Made by a program: the position numbers and the translations under genes | Part shown: piece by piece, positions 10,890 to 50,022 of the stretch | How positions within the stretch are numbered: position 1 is the first letter of the stretch | Layout of the letters: every line of letters starts with the position of its first letter | The notes under the pieces: generated by a model | What the model saw: the letters and a program-made list of their open reading frames with translations, nothing else | What the model was told of the DNA's origin: nothing | Database searches by the model: none | IMG/VR virus record: IMGVR_UViG_3300020474_000005 | Span: 12,000 to 75,999 of that record | From: a virus | Reading direction: 5' to 3' (one strand) | DNA: 64,000 nucleotides

Positions 10890-12173
10890 ATGACAAGACA
10901 ACTAATTAACACCGGTACTTTACCTAACGATGGTCAGGGTGACTCGTTACGTGATGCTGGTACAAAACTAAATTCCAATTTCAATGAGGTATATACTGCC
11001 CTTGGAAATGGAACGACTTTAACAGTCGTACAAAATAATTTATTCAACGCAACAGGTGCCAACAAAATTGCATTTTTATATAATGCACTTTCCGATCTGC
11101 CTAATGCTACAACCTATCATGGTATGTTCGCCCACGTACATACTGAAGGTGCGGCATACTACGCTCACGCAGGCAACTGGGTTAAACTTCTTGACGCTAA
11201 CAAGTCGATTGACCTTCTATCGGATGTAGACACTTCATCAGCGGCTCCAACAAATGGACAAGCATTAGTTTGGGACGCAGGTGGTTCAAAATGGAAACCG
11301 GGAACAGTATCCGGTGGTGGAGGCGGCAGTGGTGTCACTTTATTCACAGGACTGACTGATACTCCAAGTTCATTCAGTGGATATGCAAATGGTTTTTTAA
11401 GAGTTAACACCGCGGCAGATGGTCTAGAACTTACAACAAGTTTTGGAATTGACACATTGTCAGATGTTGACACAACAACTTCGGCTCCAACAGCAGGACA
11501 AGTTTTAAAATGGAGTGGTACAAAATGGCAACCAGCGGCTGATTCAACATCAGGCGGCGGTGCATCGGATGCCTCAACATTAGATGGTTTAGATAGTACA
11601 TACTTCTTAAACTACAACAACTTGAACAACAAACCTACAATCGCAACTGCATTTACAGGATTAACAGATACTCCTGCAAACTTCTCAGGTGCTGAAGGTA
11701 GATTTGTTAAAGTCAACGCAGGTGGAACAGCATTAGAATTTGTGACTTCGTCAGCGGCTTCAACAGCATTCAATGATTTGACAGACGTTACAACAACAGG
11801 TGCGGCACAAGGTGATGTAGTTTACTACAATGGAACTGCATGGGTGTTGCAAAATGGTCCAGTAACTAGATGGAATCTTGGAACTAATGGAGCACAAGAC
11901 TACACATTCAGTGGTCCTGGTTTTCCAACAACAACTAATGACCCAGTATTATATTTGAGCAGAGGACAGACTTACGTTTTTGTAAATGGTGGAGGCTCTA
12001 CGCACCCATTTGAAATAAGAGTTTCAAACGGTGGAAGTGCGTATAGTTCAGGAGTAAGTGGTTCACAATCAGGAACACAGGTGTTCACTGTACCAATGAA
12101 TGCTCCAAGTACTTTGTATTATCAATGTACGGCGCATAGTGGAATGGGTAACACAATTAATATTGTAACATAA
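10890..12173 (+). CDS. short fibre with T4 gp9/gp10-like N-terminus and cupredoxin-like C-terminal domain
   Basis: N-terminal INTGTLPNDGQGDSLRDAGTKLNSNF; internal LSDVDT...GQxLxW and FTGLTDTP repeats; C-terminal HPF...YQCTAHSGM. Confidence 0.7.
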   Translation: MTRQLINTGTLPNDGQGDSLRDAGTKLNSNFNEVYTALGNGTTLTVVQNNLFNATGANKIAFLYNALSDLPNATTYHGMFAHVHTEGAAYYAHAGNWVKLLDANKSIDLLSDVDTSSAAPTNGQALVWDAGGSKWKPGTVSGGGGGSGVTLFTGLTDTPSSFSGYANGFLRVNTAADGLELTTSFGIDTLSDVDTTTSAPTAGQVLKWSGTKWQPAADSTSGGGASDASTLDGLDSTYFLNYNNLNNKPTIATAFTGLTDTPANFSGAEGRFVKVNAGGTALEFVTSSAASTAFNDLTDVTTTGAAQGDVVYYNGTAWVLQNGPVTRWNLGTNGAQDYTFSGPGFPTTTNDPVLYLSRGQTYVFVNGGGSTHPFEIRVSNGGSAYSSGVSGSQSGTQVFTVPMNAPSTLYYQCTAHSGMGNTINIVT

Positions 12174-24234: not shown

Positions 24235-25197
24235 ATGGCAAGTTTAAAATCATTACTCGGTACAAAGCAAGATGCATTCGTATCGGTTGCGGAATCTAAC
24301 CTAGAAAAAGGTCAGATTTTTACATACCATAACGGTGCAAACTACTCTAGAATATGGTGCGGATTTTGTTTCCATCCAAGCGTATCTGGAACAGCAGTAG
24401 TAGAGGCGTGGGGAGCAGGTGGCTCTGGCGCTGAGATGTGTTGTTGCGGTTTTGGTCTTCCAGGTAACTCAGGTGCCTATGTTAAGAAAACAGTTGTGAT
24501 GTCAGTCGGCGACTACATTTGTGGTTGTACTGGTATATCTTGCGGAAATTCATCAGATTTATGTTTTAGAGGTTGTTCAGAACCTACCATGTTAAGATTT
24601 TGCATAGGTGGCGCAGAGACTTGCGTGTGTGCAGAAGGTGGTAGAGGTGGAATAACTTATTGTTCAACTAATAACAGTTTTTATTGTTGCTACAGAGCAA
24701 ATGGTTTCTGTGTAACAAAAACAGACAATAACCAATGTGGAATTATTTGTAACCAATGTAACGGTGCATGGGTAGCCTGTGCATACGGTGGTGAAACAAA
24801 TAAACCAGGATTAAATTCTTGTGTATCAGCATTTGGTTGTTATCCATCATGTATTTGTATGTTTAATCACCACATTCCAACTCCAGCGGGACAAGGTTCC
24901 AAAGAGGGAAGGATGATTGTATATACAAATGACAACAGTAACGATTTTGCACAATGGTCAGGTCAAGGTCATCACCAACACAGAGCAAATTTAGGATCAG
25001 GTAGATTTCCAACAGGCGGTATACCTTGGTCATCTTGTTGGGGTTTCAGTGGTGCTTGTGGTTGTTATGAAAACGACGGTTGTGTTCCAGTGCTTCCAGT
25101 AGGAACTGGTGGTAGAGGACCTAACCCTTGTCCAGGTGTTAGAGATCACGCAATCAGAGGTGGCTTTGGAGCAGTAAGGATTAGATTTATTAGTTAA
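24235..25197 (+). CDS. Cys-rich glycine-rich-domain protein 1 (putative adhesin/fibre tip)
   Basis: About 30 Cys in 320 aa; WGAGGSGAEMCCCG, A-x-GG-x-GG and RGGFGAVRIRF. Confidence 0.6.
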   Translation: MASLKSLLGTKQDAFVSVAESNLEKGQIFTYHNGANYSRIWCGFCFHPSVSGTAVVEAWGAGGSGAEMCCCGFGLPGNSGAYVKKTVVMSVGDYICGCTGISCGNSSDLCFRGCSEPTMLRFCIGGAETCVCAEGGRGGITYCSTNNSFYCCYRANGFCVTKTDNNQCGIICNQCNGAWVACAYGGETNKPGLNSCVSAFGCYPSCICMFNHHIPTPAGQGSKEGRMIVYTNDNSNDFAQWSGQGHHQHRANLGSGRFPTGGIPWSSCWGFSGACGCYENDGCVPVLPVGTGGRGPNPCPGVRDHAIRGGFGAVRIRFIS

Positions 25198-25206
25198 GGA
25201 TTTATT

Positions 25207-26220
25207 ATGGCAAGTTTAACAACATTATTACAAACCAAATATGATTTTGCAGTAGGTAACGAGACTAACCTAGAGCAAGGAAGAATTTATCAGTACTATC
25301 CAGGCAGTGCTAGAGGTACAAACTTTAGATGTCACGTATGTTGGGTAGCACCATCGGCTGGTACAGCAACTATTGAGATATGGGGTGCTGGTGGATCAGG
25401 TGCAGAGATGTGCTGTTGTGGATTTGGTATTAACGGAAATCCAGGAGCATACAGTAAAAAAGTTTTAACAATGGCATCAGGCTGTTTCATTTGTGGAATA
25501 GTTGGTCAGTCATGTGGTAACGCAGATGACCTATGTCACAGAGGTACTTCAGAGTCAACACAAATTTGTTGGTTTGCAGGCGGTGCCGACGGTTGTATGT
25601 GTGCCCAAGGTGGTAAGGGTGGTTACTCTTACTGTTCAACAGGTAACTCAGGTTACTGTTGTTTTGTAGCAGGTGCTTTCTGTAACACACAAGGCGGAGA
25701 TTCATACTGCGGAATTATTTGTAACTTTAAAGATTCATCAAGTGAACCAACTTTCTGTGCCCAAGCATATGGCGGAGATAATAACTGCTACGGCGGATTC
25801 AGTTGTTTCTATTTTAGAGGATGTCAACCAAACTGTAACTGTAGACAAGTTCCAGTTCTTAGATTCCCACCAGGACAGATATCTACAAAAGGTGGTGAAG
25901 TACACTACACATTAGATTCTGACAATGGAAGATCACAATGGTCAGGAATGGGTGGTTGGATGAATGCCTCACACGGATTTAACCTTGCAACAAGATCACC
26001 AACACAGGGTGGTCCATACACTGCTTGTTGGACAGGTAACAGAAGTTGCGGTTGTTATCAAGCAAATGGTTGTATACCTTTCATGCCAGCAGGAATTGGT
26101 GGACAAGGTCCAAGACCATGTGATGGTGTAAGAGATCACGCACACAGAGGTGGTCATGGTATGATTAGAATTAAATTTGTAAGTACTACTAGTGATTACG
26201 ATCTAGATAGTGCACCGTAA
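25207..26220 (+). CDS. Cys-rich glycine-rich-domain protein 2
   Basis: About 29 Cys in 337 aa; same motifs. Confidence 0.6.
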   Translation: MASLTTLLQTKYDFAVGNETNLEQGRIYQYYPGSARGTNFRCHVCWVAPSAGTATIEIWGAGGSGAEMCCCGFGINGNPGAYSKKVLTMASGCFICGIVGQSCGNADDLCHRGTSESTQICWFAGGADGCMCAQGGKGGYSYCSTGNSGYCCFVAGAFCNTQGGDSYCGIICNFKDSSSEPTFCAQAYGGDNNCYGGFSCFYFRGCQPNCNCRQVPVLRFPPGQISTKGGEVHYTLDSDNGRSQWSGMGGWMNASHGFNLATRSPTQGGPYTACWTGNRSCGCYQANGCIPFMPAGIGGQGPRPCDGVRDHAHRGGHGMIRIKFVSTTSDYDLDSAP

Positions 26221-26242
26221 GGATAAGGAGTAAATATAGTAT

Positions 26243-27220
26243 ATGGCTAGTTTAAAAGGATTATTAACTAATAGAAACCCAGCAGAGATGGTTGAGGAAA
26301 ACCTAGAGACTGGATATATCTACGTATGGACTCCAGGTACTAACTACACTAACTTTTGTAATGGTGTATGTTGGACGGCTCCAGCGGCTGGTAAGGCTCA
26401 CATAGAAATATGGGGAGCAGGCGGTTCAGGTGCTAGAATGTGTTGTTGTGGTGACGGATTACCAGGCAACGCAGGTGGATATTCTTATAGAGAAATTACT
26501 GTAGAAGCAAACGACACACTAACAGGATGTACAGGTATGCCTTGTCAGGCTCACCCATTATGTCACTCAGGATGTTCTAACCCAACAGGTATTTGTTGGA
26601 TAACAGCATCTAACGGAAATGGCTGTATGTGTGCAAGAGGTGGTTACGGTGGAAAATCAATGTGTACAACAGGAAGTTCTTTATACTGTTGTTACAGAGC
26701 ACAAGGATTCTGCACTGTAAGATGTAACAATGATAACTGTGGACTAGTTTGTAACGTATGTACAGACGGTAGTACAGATTCATGGCAGTCGTGTGCTTAT
26801 GGTGGAACAATTAACTGTTGCGGACAATTCGGTTGTGTATCATTCTTTGGATGTTGCCCACACTGTAAATGTAGATTCCAGCAACACGTTCCGATTCCAG
26901 CAGGACAATTTGCTGTTAACGGTGCGTTGATTACTTTCCAGAAAGAGTCGGATGGAACTCCGATGTCTAACTGGTCAGGTAACCAAATATTCCAATACTA
27001 TGCGGCTTTGAACTCAGCATCTAAAACGCCAAGACAAGGAACTCCAGACTCACACTGTTGGAGATCAGATAGAGCGTGTGGATGTTATGAAATGCAAGGA
27101 TGTAACAACTATCTACCAGTGGGTGGTGGCGGAATTGGCCCTAACCCATGTCCTGATGTAAGAGATCACGGAATCAGAGGTGGATTCGGAGGAGTAAGAA
27201 TCAGATTTGTTGCTTCATAA
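26243..27220 (+). CDS. Cys-rich glycine-rich-domain protein 3
   Basis: About 33 Cys in 325 aa; same motifs. Confidence 0.6.
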   Translation: MASLKGLLTNRNPAEMVEENLETGYIYVWTPGTNYTNFCNGVCWTAPAAGKAHIEIWGAGGSGARMCCCGDGLPGNAGGYSYREITVEANDTLTGCTGMPCQAHPLCHSGCSNPTGICWITASNGNGCMCARGGYGGKSMCTTGSSLYCCYRAQGFCTVRCNNDNCGLVCNVCTDGSTDSWQSCAYGGTINCCGQFGCVSFFGCCPHCKCRFQQHVPIPAGQFAVNGALITFQKESDGTPMSNWSGNQIFQYYAALNSASKTPRQGTPDSHCWRSDRACGCYEMQGCNNYLPVGGGGIGPNPCPDVRDHGIRGGFGGVRIRFVAS

Positions 27221-27262
27221 TAATTGAAGTTAGATAAATAAAACTGTAAGAGGATAAAAACA

Positions 27263-27907
27263 ATGTTTACAAAAGAATTTAGTATAGCAATGCCAAATGA
27301 ACCACTAAAGAACGACTTTAGTGACAACACAACTATCACAGGAACTTACAAAGGTCCAAGATACATTAAAATCGAGTACAACAACGAATCTAAAGTTGTT
27401 GGTAACTGGATTGATGAAGGTGACACAGAGGCAGAATTTGCAGGTAACCCAGTAGCAGAAGGTTATACATCAACAACTTTAGACGCAGATGTTGATACAA
27501 AATGGGTTGCATACATAACAGGTTTTTATTCAACAGGTGACGTTGCTGACTACGAAGAAGACTTAGGCACAACAGATGGTAACGGTGACGCAGAAAAATT
27601 TACTTTTTACTGGCACGATGGTTCAGGTGTACTTGCACAGATTTACAATCAAGGCACAATGAAATTTGAAGACGGTGCTATCACAGAACCTTCAGTAAGA
27701 GTTCACACAGTATCAGAAGCAGATTTCACAGAATCAGTAAACAGCCATATTGCTAACGCAACAACAGAAGCGGCAAGAGATGTTTACTCAGATGATGAAA
27801 AAACGGCTATCAATGCTTACAAATCTACACTAGAAGGTTTAAGCACAAAATACAGTGGTAAAGATCACTGGAAAATTCCTTTCCCACAACAACCAGACTA
27901 CAAATAA
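27263..27907 (+). CDS. putative tail-fibre assembly chaperone-like protein
   Basis: Acidic; C-terminal Y...L..L...HWKIPFPQQP resembles the ends of phage tail assembly chaperones; paralog of 28362..29090. Confidence 0.45.
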   Translation: MFTKEFSIAMPNEPLKNDFSDNTTITGTYKGPRYIKIEYNNESKVVGNWIDEGDTEAEFAGNPVAEGYTSTTLDADVDTKWVAYITGFYSTGDVADYEEDLGTTDGNGDAEKFTFYWHDGSGVLAQIYNQGTMKFEDGAITEPSVRVHTVSEADFTESVNSHIANATTEAARDVYSDDEKTAINAYKSTLEGLSTKYSGKDHWKIPFPQQPDYK

Positions 27908-27916
27908 TAATTTGCC

Positions 27917-28303
27917 ATGGCAACTGTAACAAGAGTAAACGGATCAGGTCTTTCAACAGCAGGAAACGTTTTTTACCCAGGTGCATTTGCATTTAAAATT
28001 TTAGTAAAAATTGCAAACGGTACAGCAGTTGATTTAAGAGCAGAAGATGATGCCCTTGACGAAACAGTAGAAGCAATTTGCAAAGAAATTAATCCTTTAG
28101 TTTATTGTACTACAGACGACAACAGTGGGACAATGACTGTTGTATGTGATAACAGTGCAACAGCGGCGGACTTACAAGCACGTATTAGACTAATTGGTAG
28201 AGCGGAAAACTATCCAACAAGCACAGTTACAGCAGTTGGACCAAATACTATTGATACAAGCGGTACATTAGTAACTCTCGCGGCAACATTAACAGCAACG
28301 TAA
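27917..28303 (+). CDS. hypothetical probable virion protein (128 aa)
   Basis: Ala/Thr-rich with highly expressed codon pattern. Confidence 0.65.
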   Translation: MATVTRVNGSGLSTAGNVFYPGAFAFKILVKIANGTAVDLRAEDDALDETVEAICKEINPLVYCTTDDNSGTMTVVCDNSATAADLQARIRLIGRAENYPTSTVTAVGPNTIDTSGTLVTLAATLTAT

Positions 28304-28361
28304 TCCAAAAAACACCAATCATTTTTAAAAGCAAGGTTTCGTTCACAAAATAAGTACGAGT

Positions 28362-29090
28362 ATGCCTTACAAAAAGATTGAAGTAGATGAAGCAGACAAA
28401 TACTCACAAGATGATTTGAATCATCTCACATTTATCAACAATAAAATCCCATTCGACGTCACACTACCAAATCAACCATACGTAGACGATTTCAGCGAAG
28501 GTGTAACTCACCCTTGTTTTTACACAGGACTGAATTTCATGAGAGTCAATAGACGTATCAAGGATGGATTGATATTGGAAGTTCTAGTAGAAGCAATGAG
28601 CCTGGAAGAAATAGAATCTAGAAAGATTATTCACGACGAGGGTTGCGACAGTTTTATAATTGATGCGAGAGAATATCCATGGGAAGCGGCTTTTATCAGT
28701 GGTAGATACTATCATGAAGATGTTCCAAACTATGTAGAGGAAATAGGCACAACAGATTTCTGGGGCAAACCAGAAGTTTGGGAGTATGTGCATTCACCTG
28801 AAACAGGATTAATGGCACAAATTTATTATGTGGGATCAATGCATTACAACGACGGCAAATATAGCACACCAAAATTTAGAGCACACATAATCGAACGCGA
28901 ATCATTTGATATGAACGTACAGGTACACATCAAAGACTGTGTTAGAGAAGCAAAAAGAGATGTTTACAACACGGAAGAAAGAGATTATATTATTAAGTAT
29001 GGTGAATGGTTAAAAACAGTGCCTCAAACATACAAAAATATCAAGCATTGGAAGATATTATTCCCTCAACTTCCCGAGTTTAAACCCTAA
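28362..29090 (+). CDS. putative chaperone-like protein (paralog of 27263..27907)
   Basis: Shared PNxPxxxDFS, YxEExGTTD, GxxAQIY, EAxRDVY and HWKIxFPQxP. Confidence 0.5.
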   Translation: MPYKKIEVDEADKYSQDDLNHLTFINNKIPFDVTLPNQPYVDDFSEGVTHPCFYTGLNFMRVNRRIKDGLILEVLVEAMSLEEIESRKIIHDEGCDSFIIDAREYPWEAAFISGRYYHEDVPNYVEEIGTTDFWGKPEVWEYVHSPETGLMAQIYYVGSMHYNDGKYSTPKFRAHIIERESFDMNVQVHIKDCVREAKRDVYNTEERDYIIKYGEWLKTVPQTYKNIKHWKILFPQLPEFKP

Positions 29091-29135: not shown

Positions 29136-30086
29136 ATGAGCAATTCGAAAAGACCTAAGGCTTTTTTTCTAAATGGCGGAATGGGAAGAATAATATCTGC
29201 GATTCCTGCCTTGGAAAAATATTATGAATCAAAGGAAGATCCTGATTTTATTATTGTGATTGAAGGTATTTGTAATATCCTAAATGGACATCCAACATTG
29301 GATAATAAAACTTATGATATGTATCATAAAAATTTATTCCACACAAAATTAATTAACATGGACATAGTAAGTCCTGAACCTTACAGACTGAATGAATATT
29401 TCAATCAGAAATGTGACATCGCCCAAGCATTTGATATACTGATTAACAAAAAAGGAGTAAGAAAATTGCCTGCTCCAACGTTAATATTAAGTAAAGAAGA
29501 ACTTTTAGAAGGAAGAAAAGCAGTAGATGAAATAAAAGAAAAAGTTAAGAAAGAAAAATTAGTCATCATACAACCTTTTGGACGTGCTATTACACAAATA
29601 GATAATTCTTTCATAGACAAAAGCAATAGAAGTATAGAATTCACAAATTTAAAAAAAATTATTAAAAAATTACAAGAAAAAGATTGGGCAGTATGCGTAA
29701 TGGCTGAGTTCGGAATAGAATTTAAAGACGCAGGATTTAAAGATGAGGTTGCTATTCCTGAAATAGCAGATTTACGTAACTGGGCAGGTTTAATAAAGTA
29801 TGCAGATCACTTTTTAGGATGTGATAGTGTAGGTCAACATCTTGCAAAAGCAATGGAAACTCCAGCAAGTGTTGTTATGGGAGCAACGTATCCGATAAAC
29901 ACTTCATATCCAGACGATAAAAGTTTTAAAATTATTGATATGGGACAATTTGATAGAGAATATGACCCTATAAGAATAAGTTTCGATGAAAGGATCAGTA
30001 GAAAGCATGAAAGAATTATGTCAATGACTCCTGAAATAGAAGATTATGTAGTGTCTGCTGTTAACGGAGATCCAATAGAGGAATAA
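29136..30086 (+). CDS. GT9 (ADP-heptose heptosyltransferase-like) glycosyltransferase A
   Basis: GGMGRIISAIPAL resembles WaaC SSMGDVLHTLPAL; ADHFLGCDSVGQHLAKAMETPASVVMGAT resembles the GT9 DxGxxH motif. Confidence 0.7.
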   Translation: MSNSKRPKAFFLNGGMGRIISAIPALEKYYESKEDPDFIIVIEGICNILNGHPTLDNKTYDMYHKNLFHTKLINMDIVSPEPYRLNEYFNQKCDIAQAFDILINKKGVRKLPAPTLILSKEELLEGRKAVDEIKEKVKKEKLVIIQPFGRAITQIDNSFIDKSNRSIEFTNLKKIIKKLQEKDWAVCVMAEFGIEFKDAGFKDEVAIPEIADLRNWAGLIKYADHFLGCDSVGQHLAKAMETPASVVMGATYPINTSYPDDKSFKIIDMGQFDREYDPIRISFDERISRKHERIMSMTPEIEDYVVSAVNGDPIEE

Positions 30087-30087
30087 C

Positions 30088-31920
30088 ATGAGTGATGATT
30101 TAAACAAATACAACAAAACAGGATACATAGCCGCAGTGGCAAGAGGTCACAACGCAGGTGTATGTTTACTGAAAGACGGCAAAATAGTATTTTCAATAGA
30201 AGAAGAAAGACTATCAAGAAGAAAATATGATGGTGGTCCTTATGCTTCCATGTTTGAAATATTAAAATACACGGACAAGATTGATTACCTAATAATTGCA
30301 CATACACAATCATTGAAAGATCCATCTACTGGCAGAGTAGATTATTCAGGAGATGATGTATACACAGGTATTGCTAGAAAGTTAGGATTAATAGATCCAT
30401 ACATTCATAAGATAGAACATCCACAAGTTATTGACTTATCACATATACACCACAAACTTCATGCCGCGTGTGCATTTTATAGATCAGGTTTTGACAAAGC
30501 AGTTGCAGTGATTGTTGACGGTGCAGGAACTTTTATACCTATTAAGAATAGTGTAGCAGGTGACATGACTGTATTTGAAGTTGAAAGTATATTCAGTTGT
30601 GATTATCCTAATGATATCTTTGCACTGTACAAACATTATGCAACAGGCACAGCAAGTCCAGGAGGTTACTATCCTGAAATGGATTCGGAAAGTATTAGTG
30701 AACCAGGAAAAACACATGAAGCATTATTCACAGACAAAGCAGGCATAACAAAAACATATGAAGCAATAACTCAGTATTGTGGATTCAGTGCCATTGAGGC
30801 AGGAAAGACTATGGGATTGTTTCCTTATGGAAAGAAAAATGATGTAATACCACCACTGTTTCAAAAAGAAGGAAAATTTGAATTATCAAATAGAAACTTT
30901 ATCATACCAACTTACCCAAATGCGGCGCAGGTAAACAGTCAAATATATCCTTTTGTGGATGCTAATCCTGATTCTGATAAAGGCGAAGATTGGACAAAAA
31001 TGCAAAACAGAAGAGACATGGCTTACGCAGTACAAAAAGAAACACAGAAACAATGTTTAGATTTAATTTACAAAGCAGTTGAGATGAGTGGATGTAAAAA
31101 TGTTGTGTTTTCTGGAGGATACGGATTAAATTGTGTGGCAAATTATTATTATCTTGAAAGTTTACAAAAAGACGGTATTAAGTTATATGCTGAACCAGTT
31201 TCAAATGATGCGGGAACGGCAATGGGTGCGGCTATGTTGTTCTATTACAGCCTTACACAAACAAAAGAAAAGAAAGTTGATGCACCAACTTTGTACTTAG
31301 GTCCAAAAAGAGAATACACACAAGAGCAAATAAGCGGAATATGTCAAAGACCAGGTGTTGTTTTAGAAGATTGTGACGATTCTAAAGTTGTAGAACTTTT
31401 AGTTAATAAAAATATTGTATCAATATTCCAAGGGCAAAGTGAAAATGGTCCTAGGGCATTAGGTAATAGAAGTATTTTGTTTGATCCAAGATTCAAAGAC
31501 GGTAAAGATTATGTAAACAGAGTGAAAAACCGTGAATACTTTAGACCATTTGCTGGAACAATACTTCATGATTACGTGCATGATTGGTTTGATCTACGTG
31601 GAATGGAAGAAACTCCACATATGATGTATGCTGTAAACTGTCAACCAGGTATAGAAGAGAAGATTCCAAGTATAATTCACGTGGACGGTACTTGCAGAAT
31701 ACAATCTGTGAAACGTGAACAGAATCCTTTGTATTATGACCTAATAAAAGAGTTCCATAAACAAACAGAATGTCCTATAATTTTCAATACATCATTTAAT
31801 TTAGGTGGTGAACCATTAGTTGAGACATTAGAAGACGCAGTAAGAACATTACAACACAGCGAAATAGAATATCTATATTTGCCAGAGTACAAAAAGATAG
31901 TAAAGGTTTTAAATGGCTAG
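30088..31920 (+). CDS. O-carbamoyltransferase (NodU/CmcH/TobZ family)
   Basis: EEERLSRRK, HHKLHA, VDGAG, GKTMGL, SGGYGLNCVAN, GPRALGNRSIL, RPFA, HVDGTCRIQ and NTSFN. Confidence 0.92.
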   Translation: MSDDLNKYNKTGYIAAVARGHNAGVCLLKDGKIVFSIEEERLSRRKYDGGPYASMFEILKYTDKIDYLIIAHTQSLKDPSTGRVDYSGDDVYTGIARKLGLIDPYIHKIEHPQVIDLSHIHHKLHAACAFYRSGFDKAVAVIVDGAGTFIPIKNSVAGDMTVFEVESIFSCDYPNDIFALYKHYATGTASPGGYYPEMDSESISEPGKTHEALFTDKAGITKTYEAITQYCGFSAIEAGKTMGLFPYGKKNDVIPPLFQKEGKFELSNRNFIIPTYPNAAQVNSQIYPFVDANPDSDKGEDWTKMQNRRDMAYAVQKETQKQCLDLIYKAVEMSGCKNVVFSGGYGLNCVANYYYLESLQKDGIKLYAEPVSNDAGTAMGAAMLFYYSLTQTKEKKVDAPTLYLGPKREYTQEQISGICQRPGVVLEDCDDSKVVELLVNKNIVSIFQGQSENGPRALGNRSILFDPRFKDGKDYVNRVKNREYFRPFAGTILHDYVHDWFDLRGMEETPHMMYAVNCQPGIEEKIPSIIHVDGTCRIQSVKREQNPLYYDLIKEFHKQTECPIIFNTSFNLGGEPLVETLEDAVRTLQHSEIEYLYLPEYKKIVKVLNG

Positions 31921-32893
31921 AAAAACAGCAATATTTGTAAACGGTGGTGCAGGTAGAAGCATAAGTTCAATACCAGCAATAGAAAAATACATAGAAGAGA
32001 ACGCAGATCTAGATCCAATTATCATTTGCGAAGGTGGTACAGATGCATACAAAGGTCATCCTAAACTACATTATAGAGCATATGACAATTGGCACAAAAA
32101 TTTATTCCAAGATTTATTAAAAGATAGAGATTTATTATCGCCTGAACCATATAGAGTATGGGAATATTACAATCAAAAATGTAGTTTAGGTCAAGCATAT
32201 GATATAGCAATAAATGATAAAGGAATTAGAGATTTGCCAAGAGCAAATTTAAAATTAAGCAAGGAAGAAATATTATTAGCACGAAAAATGATTGCGGAAG
32301 TCAAAGAAAAAACAGGAAAAGATAAGATTGTTGTATTCCAACCTTTCGGCAGAGGCGCACAGCCAGAAAAACTTGATGAAAAACAAAAAGAAAAACAACC
32401 TGACATAATAGACTCTACAGGAAGAAGTGTAGAACTACAAAATGTTTGGAATATTGTACGTAAATTAAGCAAAGATTATGGTGTAATGGTAATGAGTGAA
32501 TTTCCATTAGACTTTGGAAAGCACATACCCAATAAACCAGTGGCATTGCCTATGGGAACACACATTAGAGTATGGATGGGTATTATTCAACAAGCGGATC
32601 ATTTTGTTGGTTGCGATTCAGTGGGTCAACATATTGCTCATTCATATAATAAATCAGCAACTGTGATAATAGGCTCTACGTATCCTATTAATACTACTTT
32701 TCCAGATGATGAAAAATTCAATGTAATTGATTTAGGTAAAGATGAACGTGTGTACAGTCCAATAAGAGTCACTTCAGATGAGTTTTCAGACAGACTTAAT
32801 GAAGGTATTATGGCTATGGATGAGGAAGTAGAAACACGTATTATTAAATCTGTACAAAGGCTTATCAAACACGGCAAAAACGCCCGTAAATAA
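31913..32893 (+). CDS. GT9-like glycosyltransferase B (paralog of 29136..30086)
   Basis: GGAGRSISSIPAI, QPFGRG and ADHFVGCDSVGQHIA. Confidence 0.7.
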   Translation: MARKTAIFVNGGAGRSISSIPAIEKYIEENADLDPIIICEGGTDAYKGHPKLHYRAYDNWHKNLFQDLLKDRDLLSPEPYRVWEYYNQKCSLGQAYDIAINDKGIRDLPRANLKLSKEEILLARKMIAEVKEKTGKDKIVVFQPFGRGAQPEKLDEKQKEKQPDIIDSTGRSVELQNVWNIVRKLSKDYGVMVMSEFPLDFGKHIPNKPVALPMGTHIRVWMGIIQQADHFVGCDSVGQHIAHSYNKSATVIIGSTYPINTTFPDDEKFNVIDLGKDERVYSPIRVTSDEFSDRLNEGIMAMDEEVETRIIKSVQRLIKHGKNARK

Positions 32894-42271: not shown

Positions 42272-42661
42272 TTATTTTTCTTCAGTAACGGTAGTTTGTT
42301 GATTATCGCCTTTAATTATGCGATAATTGTCATTGGGATCATCAGCAGTACTAACTTCAGTAATACTTCCATTGTCAGTAAGACATTGTACTTGATGAGG
42401 TAGGAACGGCGGATTACGCCATGTGTCGCCTTCATTTAATTCTTTGGTATATAATGTTGCATCTTTGGTATCTATCCAACTTAATAAAAATTTACCGTTG
42501 TTTATAAACCATGATTCATCTTTTACAGCGTGATAGTGCATTGAAAATTTTGCACCTTTTCTATTGAAAACCATTATTTTTCCACAATATAAATCATTGG
42601 AAGCAAAGATTAATTCATATCCCCAACCTTTGTCTATTTTTCCTTCTTTATTAATTGACAT
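42272..42661 (-). CDS. cupin, sugar isomerase-like
   Basis: KGWGYE...YCGK...SMHYH..KDESW...G...H..C...EVS cupin metal motif. Confidence 0.75.
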   Translation of the reverse strand: MSINKEGKIDKGWGYELIFASNDLYCGKIMVFNRKGAKFSMHYHAVKDESWFINNGKFLLSWIDTKDATLYTKELNEGDTWRNPPFLPHQVQCLTDNGSITEVSTADDPNDNYRIIKGDNQQTTVTEEK

Positions 42662-43469
42662 TTAAGAATTCCTCCACTGTTCTAAATTTGTGTTCTATAT
42701 TTTTATTTAATTCTGTTAAATCTGCACTGGTGTAGGTCTGATATTGACCTTGTAATTTTGCAGGCATGGGTATTGTTTCTATTTGTGCGTCATATTTTTT
42801 GGCAACAAGTTCTGCAACTTTTTGAAAAGATATTGGTGCTCCTGTGCCAACATTGAATATACCAGAAACATCAGCATTAAGCATTTTTCCATGTACCTCA
42901 CAGACATCATCTACACTAACAAAATCACGTAGATACTTGTCACTGTTTTCAAACAATTTTATTTTGCCAGTCTTTGCTTGATTGGCAAATTTAGTTACAG
43001 GAGATGCTTGATCGCCTTTCTTTTCTTCGTTGTGTCCATACACATTAAAATATCTAAATCCTTGTACAAGCACTTTAAATTCTCCCATTACAGAATTAAC
43101 AAATCTATCAAATAGGTATTTGCTCCAAGCATAAGCATTTAATGGATACACGTCACCATCTTCCTTGAAATTTCCTGTGTTCCCATACACACTTGCGGAA
43201 CTGGCATACTGAAAATTTGTACCCATGTTGTCGCACATTTCCAAAAGTTTCATGCTGTATTCTAAATTCGTTTTCATGATTTTATCAACGTCTCTTTCAG
43301 TTGTGCTTGTGATTGCTCCTAGATGTATGATCCAATCATACAAAGACGGATCCGGAAAATGATTATAATCTTCCCATCTAAAGCCGATGACTTCATGCCC
43401 TTGTTTTGTAAGATGCATTCCTAAATGATCTCCGATAAATCCTTTGTAACCTGTTAAGCAAATTTTCAT
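42651..43469 (-). CDS. hldD: ADP-L-glycero-D-manno-heptose 6-epimerase
   Basis: GYKGFIG, HLGAITSTT, YASSASVYG, PLNAYAWSK, RYFNVYG, RDFVSVDD and YQTYTSAD. Confidence 0.9.
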   Translation of the reverse strand: MKICLTGYKGFIGDHLGMHLTKQGHEVIGFRWEDYNHFPDPSLYDWIIHLGAITSTTERDVDKIMKTNLEYSMKLLEMCDNMGTNFQYASSASVYGNTGNFKEDGDVYPLNAYAWSKYLFDRFVNSVMGEFKVLVQGFRYFNVYGHNEEKKGDQASPVTKFANQAKTGKIKLFENSDKYLRDFVSVDDVCEVHGKMLNADVSGIFNVGTGAPISFQKVAELVAKKYDAQIETIPMPAKLQGQYQTYTSADLTELNKNIEHKFRTVEEFLNVN

Positions 43470-44071
43470 TTAACATTCTCCCACAATTTTATAATTTTAT
43501 CAGCGCCTTCTGGTCTTATGTCTTTAGTAAGTTCATCGTGCCAGTTGGTCAAGTAGTTCATGTTTATGTTAATCCTGCTTCTTTTATCTGTACAAGTCGT
43601 GCCTGTGTGTTCCATGTAACTTGGAAATACCACCATTGAATTTTCTACACTAGGAACTTTTGTGCCATCTTTAAATTCAGTGTAACCATCTGTTGTGTTT
43701 ACATAATAAATTGCGGTGTAACTTAATGCCACTCTTGTATCTGCATGGAATCCATGCTTAATAATTTTTTCTGTTCTTGGTATGTTGTTTGCTTTTACTC
43801 TAATAAAAGTATTTGCTTTCAATACATTAAAGATTGGATAAAGCATTACCCAATTACTGTGTTCAGTGGTCACATCGGAAACTCCATGAAAGTTGTGTTG
43901 AAACTGTAATTGTTCTTTTTCCTCAGTCATTTTTTGTGCATCTTCAACAACGTGTTCCGAGTAATACCAAGGAAAATGATCACTTAACATTTTGTCCGTA
44001 AGTATCTTAAATTCTTCTTTTTGAATTACATTGGTGCAAATTAATTTGCCTTTTTCAATTCTTGTTTCCAT
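43466..44071 (-). CDS. 2OG-Fe(II) oxygenase, phage type
   Basis: HAD...TAIYYVN..DGYTEF...VFPS...HTG......RININ (HxD...H...R). Confidence 0.8.
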   Translation of the reverse strand: METRIEKGKLICTNVIQKEEFKILTDKMLSDHFPWYYSEHVVEDAQKMTEEKEQLQFQHNFHGVSDVTTEHSNWVMLYPIFNVLKANTFIRVKANNIPRTEKIIKHGFHADTRVALSYTAIYYVNTTDGYTEFKDGTKVPSVENSMVVFPSYMEHTGTTCTDKRSRININMNYLTNWHDELTKDIRPEGADKIIKLWENVK

Positions 44072-45308
44072 TAACCTTGTCCACTATGTTTGATGTTGAA
44101 AAACCTTCTACTGTTGGAAATATTATCACTTCGGCAAGGTCATTTCCGACCACTGTGTCGAACGTGTAATCTCCACCTTTTACAATCACGTTTGGTGTAT
44201 GTTCTTTTAATGCATCTATGGGAGTATCTTGTTCAAATACAACCACTTGGTCCACCCAGGGCAGTTGTAATAGTTGTTGTTCTCTTGCCCAAGCATTATT
44301 GAATGGTCTATCGTCACCCTTTAATCTTTTTACACTTGCATCAGAATTAATTCCAACAATTAATCTATCTCCTTGCTGTTTCGCAAATTTTAATAATTCT
44401 AAATGTCCTTTATGCAGAATATCAAAAACGCCATTTGTCCATACCACTGTGTCTTCAATATCTGATCTATCTATTATAGATACTCCTCTTTTTTGCACAA
44501 TTTTTTCTGCACCTTTAACTGCTAATTCACAACAAGCAATCATATTGTTGGTTTTAAAATAATGTGCAATTATGGCAAGTACAGAATCACCTGCACCACT
44601 TACATCTGCAACTTCAACAGTATTGCTTTTAATATGATCATAAGAATCTTTAGTGACTACGTGTATACCGTTCGCTCCATCAGTTACAACAAGCCATGTC
44701 CATACATTATCTTCACACATTTTTTTAGCAGTTTCAATATTAAAATTACCAAACCATGCTTCATATTCTTTCATATTTGGTTTGACTAAAAATGCACCAA
44801 CGTATCTACTAAATCCTTGTTTTGGATCCACATATACATTCTTACATTTTTCTAAAATTTTCGTTATTGTATCTTTTTTGATTACTCCTTTGTTGTAATC
44901 ACTTACAATTACCACATCGGTTTCATTTAAATTTTCAAGCAGTATTTCAACAGGAGTATCTGCCTTATATTTCTCCTCCTTGTCCACACGAATAAGGTGT
45001 TGTCCGTTCTGTCCTATGATTCTAGTTTTGGTAGTTGTCATTTCACCATCTTGGCACAGATGCGACTTTACTCCATTTTGCAGTAAAATTTCTTGGATTT
45101 TGTGTCCGGGGATGTCGTTGCCCACGGCACCATAAAGCCACGTGTCTGTGCCCAAGTTTGATAGGTTTAACGCTAGGTTTCCAGCGCCTCCAACATTGAA
45201 ATCTTTGTTTGTTTCTTTAACTACAAGCACCGGTGCTTCTGGACTCACTTTTTGGCAATCGCCCTGTGTCCACATATCAAGCATTACATCACCGATGATT
45301 TTAATCAT
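44055..45308 (-). CDS. hldE: bifunctional heptose-7-phosphate kinase / heptose-1-phosphate adenylyltransferase
   Basis: IGDVMLD, SPEAPV, GGAGN, SDYNKG, VDPK, KPN..E and DVSGAGD, followed by NGVFDILHKGH, NSDASVKRLKG..RP and KGGDY. Confidence 0.93.
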   Translation of the reverse strand: MIKIIGDVMLDMWTQGDCQKVSPEAPVLVVKETNKDFNVGGAGNLALNLSNLGTDTWLYGAVGNDIPGHKIQEILLQNGVKSHLCQDGEMTTTKTRIIGQNGQHLIRVDKEEKYKADTPVEILLENLNETDVVIVSDYNKGVIKKDTITKILEKCKNVYVDPKQGFSRYVGAFLVKPNMKEYEAWFGNFNIETAKKMCEDNVWTWLVVTDGANGIHVVTKDSYDHIKSNTVEVADVSGAGDSVLAIIAHYFKTNNMIACCELAVKGAEKIVQKRGVSIIDRSDIEDTVVWTNGVFDILHKGHLELLKFAKQQGDRLIVGINSDASVKRLKGDDRPFNNAWAREQQLLQLPWVDQVVVFEQDTPIDALKEHTPNVIVKGGDYTFDTVVGNDLAEVIIFPTVEGFSTSNIVDKVNGNKN

Positions 45309-45736
45309 TACATTAATTTTAACATTTTGAACACAGTATCTAATTTGACCTGGTTCATTTTATTTTGAAGAGTCTTACGTAAACCTTGGTGTAATGGCTT
45401 GGGCCAATTACCAAAACTTACCCACGCATATCCATCGTGTTCTGTGTTTAATTTTGGAATAAATTCTTTCTCTACAACACACAAGAAAGTGTGATATAAA
45501 AAATTTTCATCATTGCTTATAAAAGTTTCCATAGGTATTTTCTTTTTTATTTCTACTTCACCTACTTCCTCTTTAATCTCTCTATGTAGTCCTTCCCATA
45601 AATTTTCATCTACGGTTGTGCCACCTACTAATCCCCATACGTGATTTTGTTTGCTCTGCACTCTATGAAGTACTAAAAACCTTTGGGTATCCAAAGTATA
45701 GAAGAGTGCACCGCACCCTATAATTTTACTGCTCAT
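45308..45736 (-). CDS. NUDIX hydrolase
   Basis: Nudix box G-x5-E-x7-REIKEEVG. Confidence 0.85.
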   Translation of the reverse strand: MSSKIIGCGALFYTLDTQRFLVLHRVQSKQNHVWGLVGGTTVDENLWEGLHREIKEEVGEVEIKKKIPMETFISNDENFLYHTFLCVVEKEFIPKLNTEHDGYAWVSFGNWPKPLHQGLRKTLQNKMNQVKLDTVFKMLKLM

Positions 45737-48521: not shown

Positions 48522-48561
48522 ACATATATTTATCGGATGGTGGTGAGTGATAAATATATGT
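48522..48561. promoter_or_regulatory. divergent late promoter pair forming a perfect 13-bp inverted repeat
   Basis: ACATATATTTATC-N14-GATAAATATATGT. Confidence 0.75.
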
Positions 48562-49377: not shown

Positions 49378-50022
49378 ATGCAACATGAAATGATTCCGTT
49401 ATTTTCCGTGCCTTTGATCAAAACTAACATTGGAGTAATGGATCCAGTGTCTATGGCATGGGTACGTGGGTTGGATTATCCTTCCCAAAGAACAGGTACA
49501 GATCATTCAGATGATGATTTACCTATGATGAATAGAGGTATGAAAATACTTGAAAGACCACAACTAAAAGATTTAAAATACAAAATACAAAATGCAATAA
49601 ATTATTTTGTGGGCGATGTTTTAGGCATAGTGCAAAATTTTCAAATTACAACAAGTTGGATTAACAAAACAGACAAGACAGAATACATAGACAAACATTC
49701 ACACCCAAACAGTATAATAAGTGGTGTATATTATATAAGCACAACTCCTAAATGTGCTCCAATTATTTTCAGCAAACCTCATCTATACTCTAACATTACA
49801 TTTCAAAACATACAGTTGGCGTACAGTGGTGAAAATAAAAATCAATACAATACAGATTACTATGGAATAAATCCACTGCCTGGAGAATTATTAATGTTTC
49901 CATCTTGGTTAGAACATGAAGTATTAGAACAAGGACCAGAACACAACCGTATCAGTCTAGCATTTAATACATATCCAAAAGGAGACATTGGAGAAGGTAC
50001 AAAGCAGTTAAAAATATTATGA
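49378..50022 (+). CDS. putative 2OG-Fe(II) oxygenase (TIGR02466-like)
   Basis: LFSVP, SWIN, HSHPNSIISGVYY, GELLMFPSWLEHEV and RISLAFN. Confidence 0.82.
   Translation: MQHEMIPLFSVPLIKTNIGVMDPVSMAWVRGLDYPSQRTGTDHSDDDLPMMNRGMKILERPQLKDLKYKIQNAINYFVGDVLGIVQNFQITTSWINKTDKTEYIDKHSHPNSIISGVYYISTTPKCAPIIFSKPHLYSNITFQNIQLAYSGENKNQYNTDYYGINPLPGELLMFPSWLEHEVLEQGPEHNRISLAFNTYPKGDIGEGTKQLKIL

Follow-up and report, generated by a model that had tools for sequence, protein, structure and literature searches.

We identified, in an uncultured marine T4-like cyanophage, two paralogous proteins which on the donor side resemble the heptosyltransferases of CAZy family GT9 but which, judging from their sequences, fail the catalytic-base feature that defines this family. 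The window analysed here, a stretch of 64,000 nucleotides (positions 12,000 to 75,999 of IMG/VR virus record IMGVR_UViG_3300020474_000005), comes from a 76-kb piece of an uncultured virus, a record estimated to be ~22% complete, and carries structural genes of the T4-like cyanophage type. On its plus strand, three tightly packed genes at 29136-32893 encode the two proteins, which we call GT-A and GT-B, with a carbamoyltransferase (CT) between them; GT-A and GT-B are used as the names of these proteins, and 'GT-A fold' and 'GT-B fold' as the names of the glycosyltransferase fold classes. In both proteins, the position of the canonical GT9 base, the aspartate of the G-D motif that opens helix 1, is occupied by an arginine. 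As the donor side is GT9-like and the base aspartate is missing, both proteins are set apart from ordinary GT9 members. With somewhat more confidence than doubt, we favour the interpretation that GT-A and GT-B are active heptosyltransferases of the late stage of infection that decorate fibre proteins, and that CT would then modify the transferred sugar.

Arginine at the position of the GT9 catalytic base

GT-A (29136-30086, plus strand, 316 aa) and GT-B (31913-32893, plus strand, 326 aa) share 47% identity across their full length (E 6e-106) and are therefore paralogues, both of which match phrog_8954, a group of 'unknown function' (E 4e-125 and E 8e-134, respectively). The AlphaFold (AF2) models of the two proteins (pLDDT 96.0 for GT-A and 95.7 for GT-B; pTM 0.93) have the GT-B fold and are most similar to GT9 structures. 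The best structural scores were obtained with WaaC (HepI) and WaaF (HepII) of CAZy GT9/PF01075 (2H1H, 2GT1, 6DFE, 1PSW) and with the uncharacterised Veillonella protein 3TOV. The VIA Z scores of GT-A and GT-B were 23.8 and 23.9 with 3TOV, 21.3 and 21.9 with WaaF (1PSW), 20.3 and 20.4 with TibC, and 19.2 and 18.8 with WaaC; over the GT9 structures 3TOV, 1PSW, 4RAP, 2H1H, 2GT1 and 6DFE, Z ranged from 18.6 to 23.9 and the root-mean-square deviation from 3.1 to 4.0 Å for 252-281 aligned residues, compared with a Z of 11.6 (GT-A) and 12.7 (GT-B) for the best GT-B fold outside GT9. Foldseek matched the models to GT9 structures with E ~1e-10. Structural comparison thus returned a GT9 fold for both proteins. 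At the sequence level, a search of the Protein Data Bank (PDB) with an 80-sequence profile of the family also gave GT9 proteins as the best matches, although these were weak (E 0.01-0.07), and no relevant PDB sequence was found with single sequences or small profiles.

The initial annotation had aligned an arginine of each protein with the catalytic Asp13 of WaaC by eye, and the peptides and codons that it quoted are exact. GT-A reads NGGMGRIISAIPAL, with Arg18 encoded by AGA at 29187-29189; GT-B reads NGGAGRSISSIPAI, with Arg15 encoded at 31955-31957 (both plus strand); and WaaC of E. coli K-12 reads SSMGDVLHTLPAL, with Asp13. Gly12-Asp13 is invariant across the four E. coli proteins compared (WaaC, WaaF, WaaQ and WaaU). 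Comparison of a profile of 80 full-length family members with these four E. coli K-12 GT9 proteins using hhalign gave a probability of 97.6% and E 3e-12 over 261 columns, with the N-terminal strand-loop-helix free of gaps, and placed Gly17-Arg18 of GT-A on Gly12-Asp13 of WaaC; with GT-B as the first row, Arg15 fell on Asp13 (E 2.7e-12). The structural alignments begin with model residue 6 (GT-A) or 3 (GT-B) paired with WaaC residue 1, which places Arg18 and Arg15 on WaaC residue 13. The profile comparison and the structural alignment ranges therefore concur, and the alignment made by eye is borne out. In WaaC, the D13A substitution lowers activity 4688-fold, compared with 2027-fold for D261A and 926-fold for K192A, and Asp13 was found in every heptosyltransferase compared (PMC5713226). 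The corresponding base of TibC, Asp110, was identified by superposition on WaaC (PMC4358343). We located Asp110 in the motif TGTLGD of the H10407 gene sequence, and its correspondence to Arg18 rests on this motif and on the published superposition of TibC and WaaC (PMC4358343), as the hhalign alignment with TibC spanned the C-lobe only.

The donor pocket is conserved. The D-S-x-x-x-H motif, said at the outset to be kept in both proteins, is indeed present as CDSVGQH in GT-A (D230-S-V-G-Q-H235, 29823-29840, plus strand) and GT-B (D235-S-V-G-Q-H240, 32615-32632, plus strand) and falls on D261-T262...H266 of WaaC in the hhalign alignment. By the same alignment, Arg165, Asp230, Ser231 and His235 of the phage family correspond to Lys192, Asp261, Thr262 and His266 of WaaC, residues that bind the heptose and phosphates of the donor (PMC5713226; bioRxiv 10.1101/2021.06.16.448588). 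The four phage residues are conserved at 97-100% in the family, and Asp230 and His235 are invariant in the 80-sequence alignment.

The arginine is a property of a large family rather than of this one locus. A family-wide search of 1.8 billion representatives (E <=0.001, clustering at 50% identity), in which no selection was made on the arginine column, returned 575 clusters, and every member sampled was viral. In the column of WaaC Asp13, 83 representatives at 50% identity carry arginine in 77 cases, lysine in three, and cysteine, serine and glutamate in one case each; aspartate occurs in none. Arginine is present in all 89 distinct cyanophage copies (24 of the GT-A type, 25 of the GT-B type and 40 single-copy) and is encoded by AGA (80), AGG (6) and CGN (37), i.e. 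by both codon families. As the search did not select for arginine, its prevalence is not due to chance. Even the very distant, long-branched member of Aeromonas phage HJ05 reads NGGLGR and retains Glu81, Asp161, Arg165, Asp230, Ser231 and His235. Only three sites are conserved within the GT-A and GT-B orthologue groups and differ between them, which is no clear sign that their specificities have diverged. The family domain occurs in variant contexts: in the 558-aa protein P0262 it occupies residues 245-541, fused behind an N-terminal extension of ~244 residues, and the single-copy homologues of P-SSM2 (PSSM2_307, L001:7995-9107) and S-CAM1 (L002:7998-9137) have at the C-terminus a low-complexity tail (~55-65 residues, with much Lys, Ser, Pro and Gly) that is missing from GT-A and GT-B.

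No GT9 protein of the aspartate type was found in genuine phage genomes when 50,697 phage records were searched by tblastn with WaaC and WaaF. Most matches were enterobacterial copies, almost identical to the queries, in records that are mislabelled or contaminated, and two further matches, both weak, lay in small faecal contigs without annotation. For instance, the records of Campylobacter phages A11a and A18a (MG065691.1 and MG065686.1) carry a waaC or waaF whose protein is 100% identical to that of E. coli, most likely through host or laboratory contamination of the deposited records. The arginine type is therefore the only GT9-like family found in the genuine phage genomes surveyed.

Arg18 is not a lone substitution. 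When six sequences lacking Arg18 were compared with 80 that have it at every conserved column, only Glu81 and Arg280 tracked Arg18. Glu81 (29376-29378, plus strand), in the P-E-P-Y loop after strand 4 of the N-lobe, is changed in 4/6 sequences lacking Arg18 and in 0/80 keeping it (p 7e-6), so that all four exceptions to glutamate (82/86) also lack Arg18. Arg280 (29973-29975, plus strand), in the Y-x-P-x-R motif, is changed in 5/6 and 1/80, respectively (p 1e-6). Asp230, Ser231, His235, Pro82 and Tyr83 are unchanged in the six sequences, and the local alignments are clean. Arg18 is thus part of a co-evolving Arg-Glu-Arg unit. In P0215, R18S is accompanied by E81K and R280D, a charge swap of the kind expected of contacting residues, which suggests that Glu81 and Arg280 touch. 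Given that Arg18 co-varies with a near-invariant glutamate, the catalytic base may have been relocated to another acidic residue. Glu81 is one candidate for this role, or may be a salt-bridge partner; the other is Asp161 (D in 85/86), which the secondary structure of the models places in a family-specific hairpin insertion of ~9-17 residues, four residues before Arg165 (R in 85/86), the equivalent of Lys192 (Asp161-x3-Arg165, 29616-29630, plus strand). The backbone of Met11 and Gly12 in WaaC touches the donor phosphates (bioRxiv 10.1101/2021.06.16.448588), so that an arginine at the next position could reach the leaving diphosphate.

Donor supply and gene context

The window carries a putative donor-supply operon on the minus strand (42272-45736), in which Pfam, NCBIfam and PHROG searches identified a cupin, an HldD-like ADP-heptose 6-epimerase, an open reading frame (ORF) resembling 2-oxoglutarate (2OG) oxygenases, a bifunctional HldE and a Nudix protein. 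HldE scored 328 bits against the HldE model of NCBIfam and the epimerase 233 bits against heptose_epim, and the 201-aa ORF of the operon matched phrog_274 and phrog_81. No GmhA (PF13580) turned up in the 76-kb record, which covers ~22% of a genome. In P-SSM2 and S-CAM1, a single GT is followed by a carbamoyltransferase, HldE pieces, a phosphoheptose isomerase, a cupin and an epimerase. Heptose genes also adjoin the GT in clades with only ~30-35% GT identity to GT-A: loci L093-L100 contain GT, CT, a haloacid dehalogenase (HAD) phosphatase, HldE, cupin and HldD, and HldE or HldD lies near the GT in L107, L108, L114, L116 and L117. Together with the donor pocket, the HldE/HldD context suggests that ADP-heptose is the donor of GT-A and GT-B. 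In HJ05, no heptose-pathway or carbamoyltransferase gene was found among the neighbours scanned; its host is a gammaproteobacterium, which is expected to make ADP-heptose and could supply the donor.

CT (30088-31920, plus strand, 610 aa) is a NodU/Nol-like O-carbamoyltransferase of the NodU family (PF02543 and PF16861, E 7e-58; phrog_1601). Its gene starts 2 nt past the stop of GT-A and shares its last 8 nt with the beginning of GT-B. Carbamoyltransferase paralogues with 38-40% identity are found beside a divergently oriented 2OG-Fe(II) oxygenase gene in the GT-less cyanophages S-CAM8, P-RSM4 and S-SSM5 (L130-L132), hence the carbamoyltransferase also works in another context.

A megablast search of the region against phage records gave no match. 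The GT genes belong to a conserved module next to fibre genes. In 80/80 related loci the order is a trio of Cys-rich proteins, small genes, GT, CT, GT-B where present, and then two fibre-like proteins of 144 and 618 aa; both GT copies are present in at least 34 of the 80. In the window, the trio comprises three tandem Cys-rich (8.6-10.2% Cys), Gly-rich proteins (24235-27220, plus strand), which are candidate acceptors and candidate fibre-tip proteins, and the three small genes between the trio and GT-A (27263-29090, plus strand; 214, 128 and 242 aa) are by synteny possibly fibre chaperones or accessory genes. In the L093 clade, a protein of 500-1140 aa with 7-12% Cys is followed by a tail-fibre assembly chaperone, GT and CT; the chaperone, recognised by PF16778 and several 'tail fiber assembly' PHROGs, fills the slot of the small genes in the window. 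In HJ05, the GT lies between genes for baseplate J, tail protein I and DUF4815 on one side and the tail sheath on the other.

The motif ATAAATA, which resembles the late promoter of T4-like phages, occurs in 15 plus-strand copies in the window, each 12-114 nt upstream of an ORF start (for instance at 2972, 12560, 17753, 23823, 27234, 48550, 54278 and 61800); a minus-strand copy lies at 48527. The copy at 27234-27240 (plus strand) is the nearest upstream of GT-A, CT and GT-B, and its position ahead of the run suggests that these genes are transcribed late, with the structural genes. The full T4 late-promoter consensus TATAAATA does not occur in the 64 kb, compared with 5.8 copies expected.

We propose the following mechanism. 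ADP-heptose produced by the HldE/HldD operon of the phage would be bound in the WaaC-like pocket formed by Arg165, Asp230, Ser231 and His235, and the heptose would be moved, late in infection, onto an acceptor other than lipopolysaccharide (LPS), most likely a protein of the tail fibre or fibre tip whose gene lies alongside. The carbamoyltransferase encoded between the GTs would then O-carbamoylate the transferred heptose. Arg18 (Arg15 in GT-B) would lie on the acceptor side of the cleft within the Arg18-Glu81-Arg280 network, and catalysis could proceed in one of two ways: either the base is now Glu81 or Asp161, held in place by the arginines, which might instead position the leaving diphosphate, or the acceptor is a nucleophile that reacts without a base.

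The acceptor and competing explanations

The N-lobe, which in GT-B-fold models of both proteins contains a four-stranded sheet, is not basic. Its net charge is +2 in GT-A, 0 in GT-B and -2 as the family median, compared with +8 in WaaC, +6 in WaaF, +2 in WaaQ and +10 in WaaU of E. coli, which argues against a polyanionic acceptor resembling LPS. Furthermore, cyanobacterial LPS contains neither heptose nor 3-deoxy-D-manno-oct-2-ulosonic acid (Kdo; PMC4515613), so that the host offers no WaaC acceptor and the phage must supply the heptose pathway itself.

The initial annotation had pointed to Cys-rich proteins as neighbours of the GTs, and such proteins are enriched there. Defining a Cys-rich ORF as one of at least 150 aa with at least 5% Cys, and taking one locus per GT cluster at 60% identity, we found 21/131 Cys-rich ORFs within 3 kb of the GT and 5/170 farther away (one-sided Fisher p 6e-5), with 12/27 clusters positive; with clustering at 45% identity, the counts were 8/65 and 2/89 (p 0.015). 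A profile search with a hidden Markov model of the trio, run with positive controls on eight cyanomyovirus records, detected three copies in this record, two in P-SSM2 and three in S-CAM1, all of which bear the GT, and none in five complete cyanomyoviruses from which the GT is also absent (S-CAM8, P-RSM4, S-SSM5, S-RIM44 and Bellamy). In distant clades, proteins with 10-12% Cys, of up to 1141 aa and with runs such as CCCC, adjoin the GT (L093:7173-9311, L094:6499-9924, L121:8389-9957 and L124:9070-9981, the ends of the last two being approximate); for these, Pfam and PHROG gave no match, and no resemblance to the trio of the window was detected. The link between the GT and Cys-rich proteins is real and is silent on the type of bond. 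A separate set of neighbours is formed by 2OG-Fe(II) oxygenase-family genes, which lie directly upstream of the GT in L088 (9391-9996), L090 (3262-3876) and L092 (9387-10004), loci without Cys-rich neighbours; the window has two genes of this family, at 43466-44071 (minus strand) inside the ADP-heptose operon and at 49378-50022 (plus strand). One possibility for this placement is that a protein residue is hydroxylated and then glycosylated.

The absence of the canonical base raises the possibility, which we consider unlikely, that GT-A and GT-B are S-heptosyltransferases acting on the thiolates of Cys residues in the Cys-rich fibre-tip proteins encoded nearby, in which case no base would be needed and the arginine would stabilise or orient the thiolate. 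The enrichment of Cys-rich proteins near the GT, including the 7-12% Cys proteins of the deep clades that are unrelated to the trio by Pfam, and the joint presence or absence of trio and GT across the eight cyanomyovirus records are in line with this. However, Arg is conserved equally in members without a Cys-rich neighbour (L088/89, L092 and L123), disulfide formation or metal binding in fibre tips outside the cell may be all that the Cys residues serve for, and the genes could be adjacent just because both belong to the fibre module, with no enzyme-substrate relation between their products. Glu81, coupled to Arg18, could also act as an ordinary base for O-glycosylation, and the known S-glycosyltransferases have the GT-A fold, so that there is no precedent with a GT-B fold. 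It is a doubtful proposition that in this phage-only branch the Arg-Glu-Arg site stands in for the usual acid-base chemistry of heptosyltransferases and takes a pre-ionised nucleophile, and that heptose, or carbamoyl-heptose, is joined through sulfur to Cys of the fibre-tip proteins; if true, this would be the first S-heptosylation, the first S-glycosyltransferase of the GT-B fold and a new virion decoration in abundant ocean phages.

It is likewise improbable that the target is a host envelope glycan or lipid-linked intermediate, modified for superinfection exclusion or receptor masking, rather than the virion. A role of this kind is commonly put forward for the 'LPS genes' of cyano- and pelagimyophages; the glycosyltransferases and rfaE that marine myophages carry in their host-recognition cluster have been read as modifying the host O-chain (PMC7029224), and in the L088 clade the Arg-type GT belongs to a larger cluster of glycan type: L088/89 group it with a DXD glycosyltransferase, an FkbM methyltransferase, HldD and HldE, and the stretch L088:9986-14839 contains GT, a 179-aa ORF, the DXD glycosyltransferase (PF04488), FkbM methyltransferase, HldD and HldE, without a carbamoyltransferase. 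Yet the N-lobe lacks the positive charge of the LPS heptosyltransferases, cyanobacterial LPS (PMC4515613) offers no heptose/Kdo core to extend, and in unrelated phages, HJ05 among them, the genes lie within late structural runs beside fibre and fibre-chaperone genes. The missing Asp could also mean that base and activity were lost together, leaving non-catalytic ADP-heptose binders or scaffolds that present the nucleotide sugar to CT or serve in fibre assembly. GT-A, CT and GT-B are indeed tightly packed or overlapping, and GT9-fold subunits without known activity exist: chains of the chloroplast NDH-PSI supercomplexes 7WFF_a, 9GRX_1 and 7F9O_6, which we take to be subunit PnsB1, match the models with Z 18-20. 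We regard this explanation as quite improbable, as there would be little reason for an inactive enzyme to keep one substitute (Arg in 93%) that co-evolves with Glu81 and Arg280, or heptose-contacting Asp230 and His235 invariant in a family of more than 500 clusters at 50% identity. The narrower suggestion of the initial annotation, a heterodimer scaffolding CT, fares poorly for a further reason: many phages, such as P-SSM2 and S-CAM1, have a single copy, and some family members have no carbamoyltransferase nearby. Glycosylation of phage DNA, i.e. heptosylated bases, seems very improbable. Heptose-modified 5-hydroxymethylcytosine (5hmC) made by phage enzymes of the GT-B fold has been reported (bioRxiv 10.1101/2023.12.21.572611), but those enzymes resemble T4 beta-glucosyltransferase and not GT9, T4 beta-glucosyltransferase is absent from the 50 best structural matches of GT-A and of GT-B, and the locus has a fibre-module context with no linked hydroxymethylase or similar gene.

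Several points weigh against the interpretation that we favour, namely active heptosyltransferases decorating fibre proteins. The two proteins score at or below the gathering score of PF01075 (20.5 bits for GT-A and 12.3 for GT-B, against 22), the genome search giving 22.1 bits for GT-A 'with its neighbours in the frame', and, as PnsB1 of the plant NDH complex illustrates, the GT9 fold can also occur in a role other than glycosyl transfer. The covariation involves six sequences, perhaps five independent lineages in the tree, two of the sequences (P0192 and P0268) being altered at further positions as well, perhaps through decay. Related T4-like phages owe part of their synteny to common descent, and the link to fibre genes is therefore not fully independent evidence. 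Literature searches found no virion glycoproteomics.

The aspartate of the G-D motif has been treated as universal and essential in heptosyltransferases, and a large phage family does without it. This family is a natural experiment in how an inverting GT-B-fold enzyme can work once the usual base is gone. A further implication is that tail fibres may bear sugars in phages that rank among the most abundant in the ocean, and such decoration could affect host recognition, particle stability or protease resistance. As the family has cultured carriers (S-CAM1, S-CAM3, S-SSM7, P-SSM2, P-SSM5 and Sf-FS3), it is directly testable.

Comparison with known glycosyltransferase systems

The phage proteins share with WaaC and WaaF the glycine loop before helix 1, the donor pocket and the linkage to genes of ADP-heptose synthesis. 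Unlike WaaC and WaaF, they have an arginine for the base, a four-stranded, non-basic N-lobe, the hairpin with Asp161 and the Arg18-Glu81-Arg280 network. Members of the family were found in phages only, where tail-fibre modules house their genes, and the LPS of the hosts lacks the WaaC acceptor. The protein-modifying enzymes TibC and AAH (BAHT, TIGR04414; 4RAP, 4RB4) have the GT9-type fold in common with the phage models (Z ~20), and the four-stranded N-lobe sheet seen in these models has been described for TibC (PMC4358343). The acceptor of TibC is a protein, as we also favour for the phage enzymes. TibC, however, keeps an Asp base (Asp110, in TLGD) and has an N-terminal extension of ~90 residues, an iron-finger and a dodecameric assembly, and it reads PSGLSW without a D-S-x-x-x-H motif. 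Against TIGR04414, GT-A scored 12.3 bits, compared with a cut-off of 200, and GT-B was not listed; the models align to TibC from TibC residue 89 or 92 onwards, lack the N-terminal thumb and iron-finger extension, and GT-A and GT-B contain ~1% Cys.

The glycocin S-glycosyltransferases SunS and ThuS are GT-A-fold enzymes of family GT2 with a DXD motif; GT-A and GT-B are both modelled with the GT-B fold and are thus not of the SunS/ThuS type. With regard to virion glycosylation, Freeman and colleagues are said to have described, in 2023, glycosyltransferases with which mycobacteriophages decorate structural proteins of their own particles. The enzyme families, sugars and targets of that system differ from those considered here, and we know of no heptose, carbamoylation or Arg-for-Asp active site in it. 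The closest parallel to the gene pairing is the inner core of Pseudomonas-type LPS, in which GT9 heptosyltransferases of the Asp type, acting on Kdo2-lipid A, and a carbamoyltransferase produce 7-O-carbamoyl-heptose. Both systems combine heptosyltransferase-like proteins with a carbamoyltransferase of the NodU/CmcH family, whereas the phage set is of the Arg type and linked to fibre genes. By analogy, this pairing suggests that the product of the phage module is a carbamoylated heptose.

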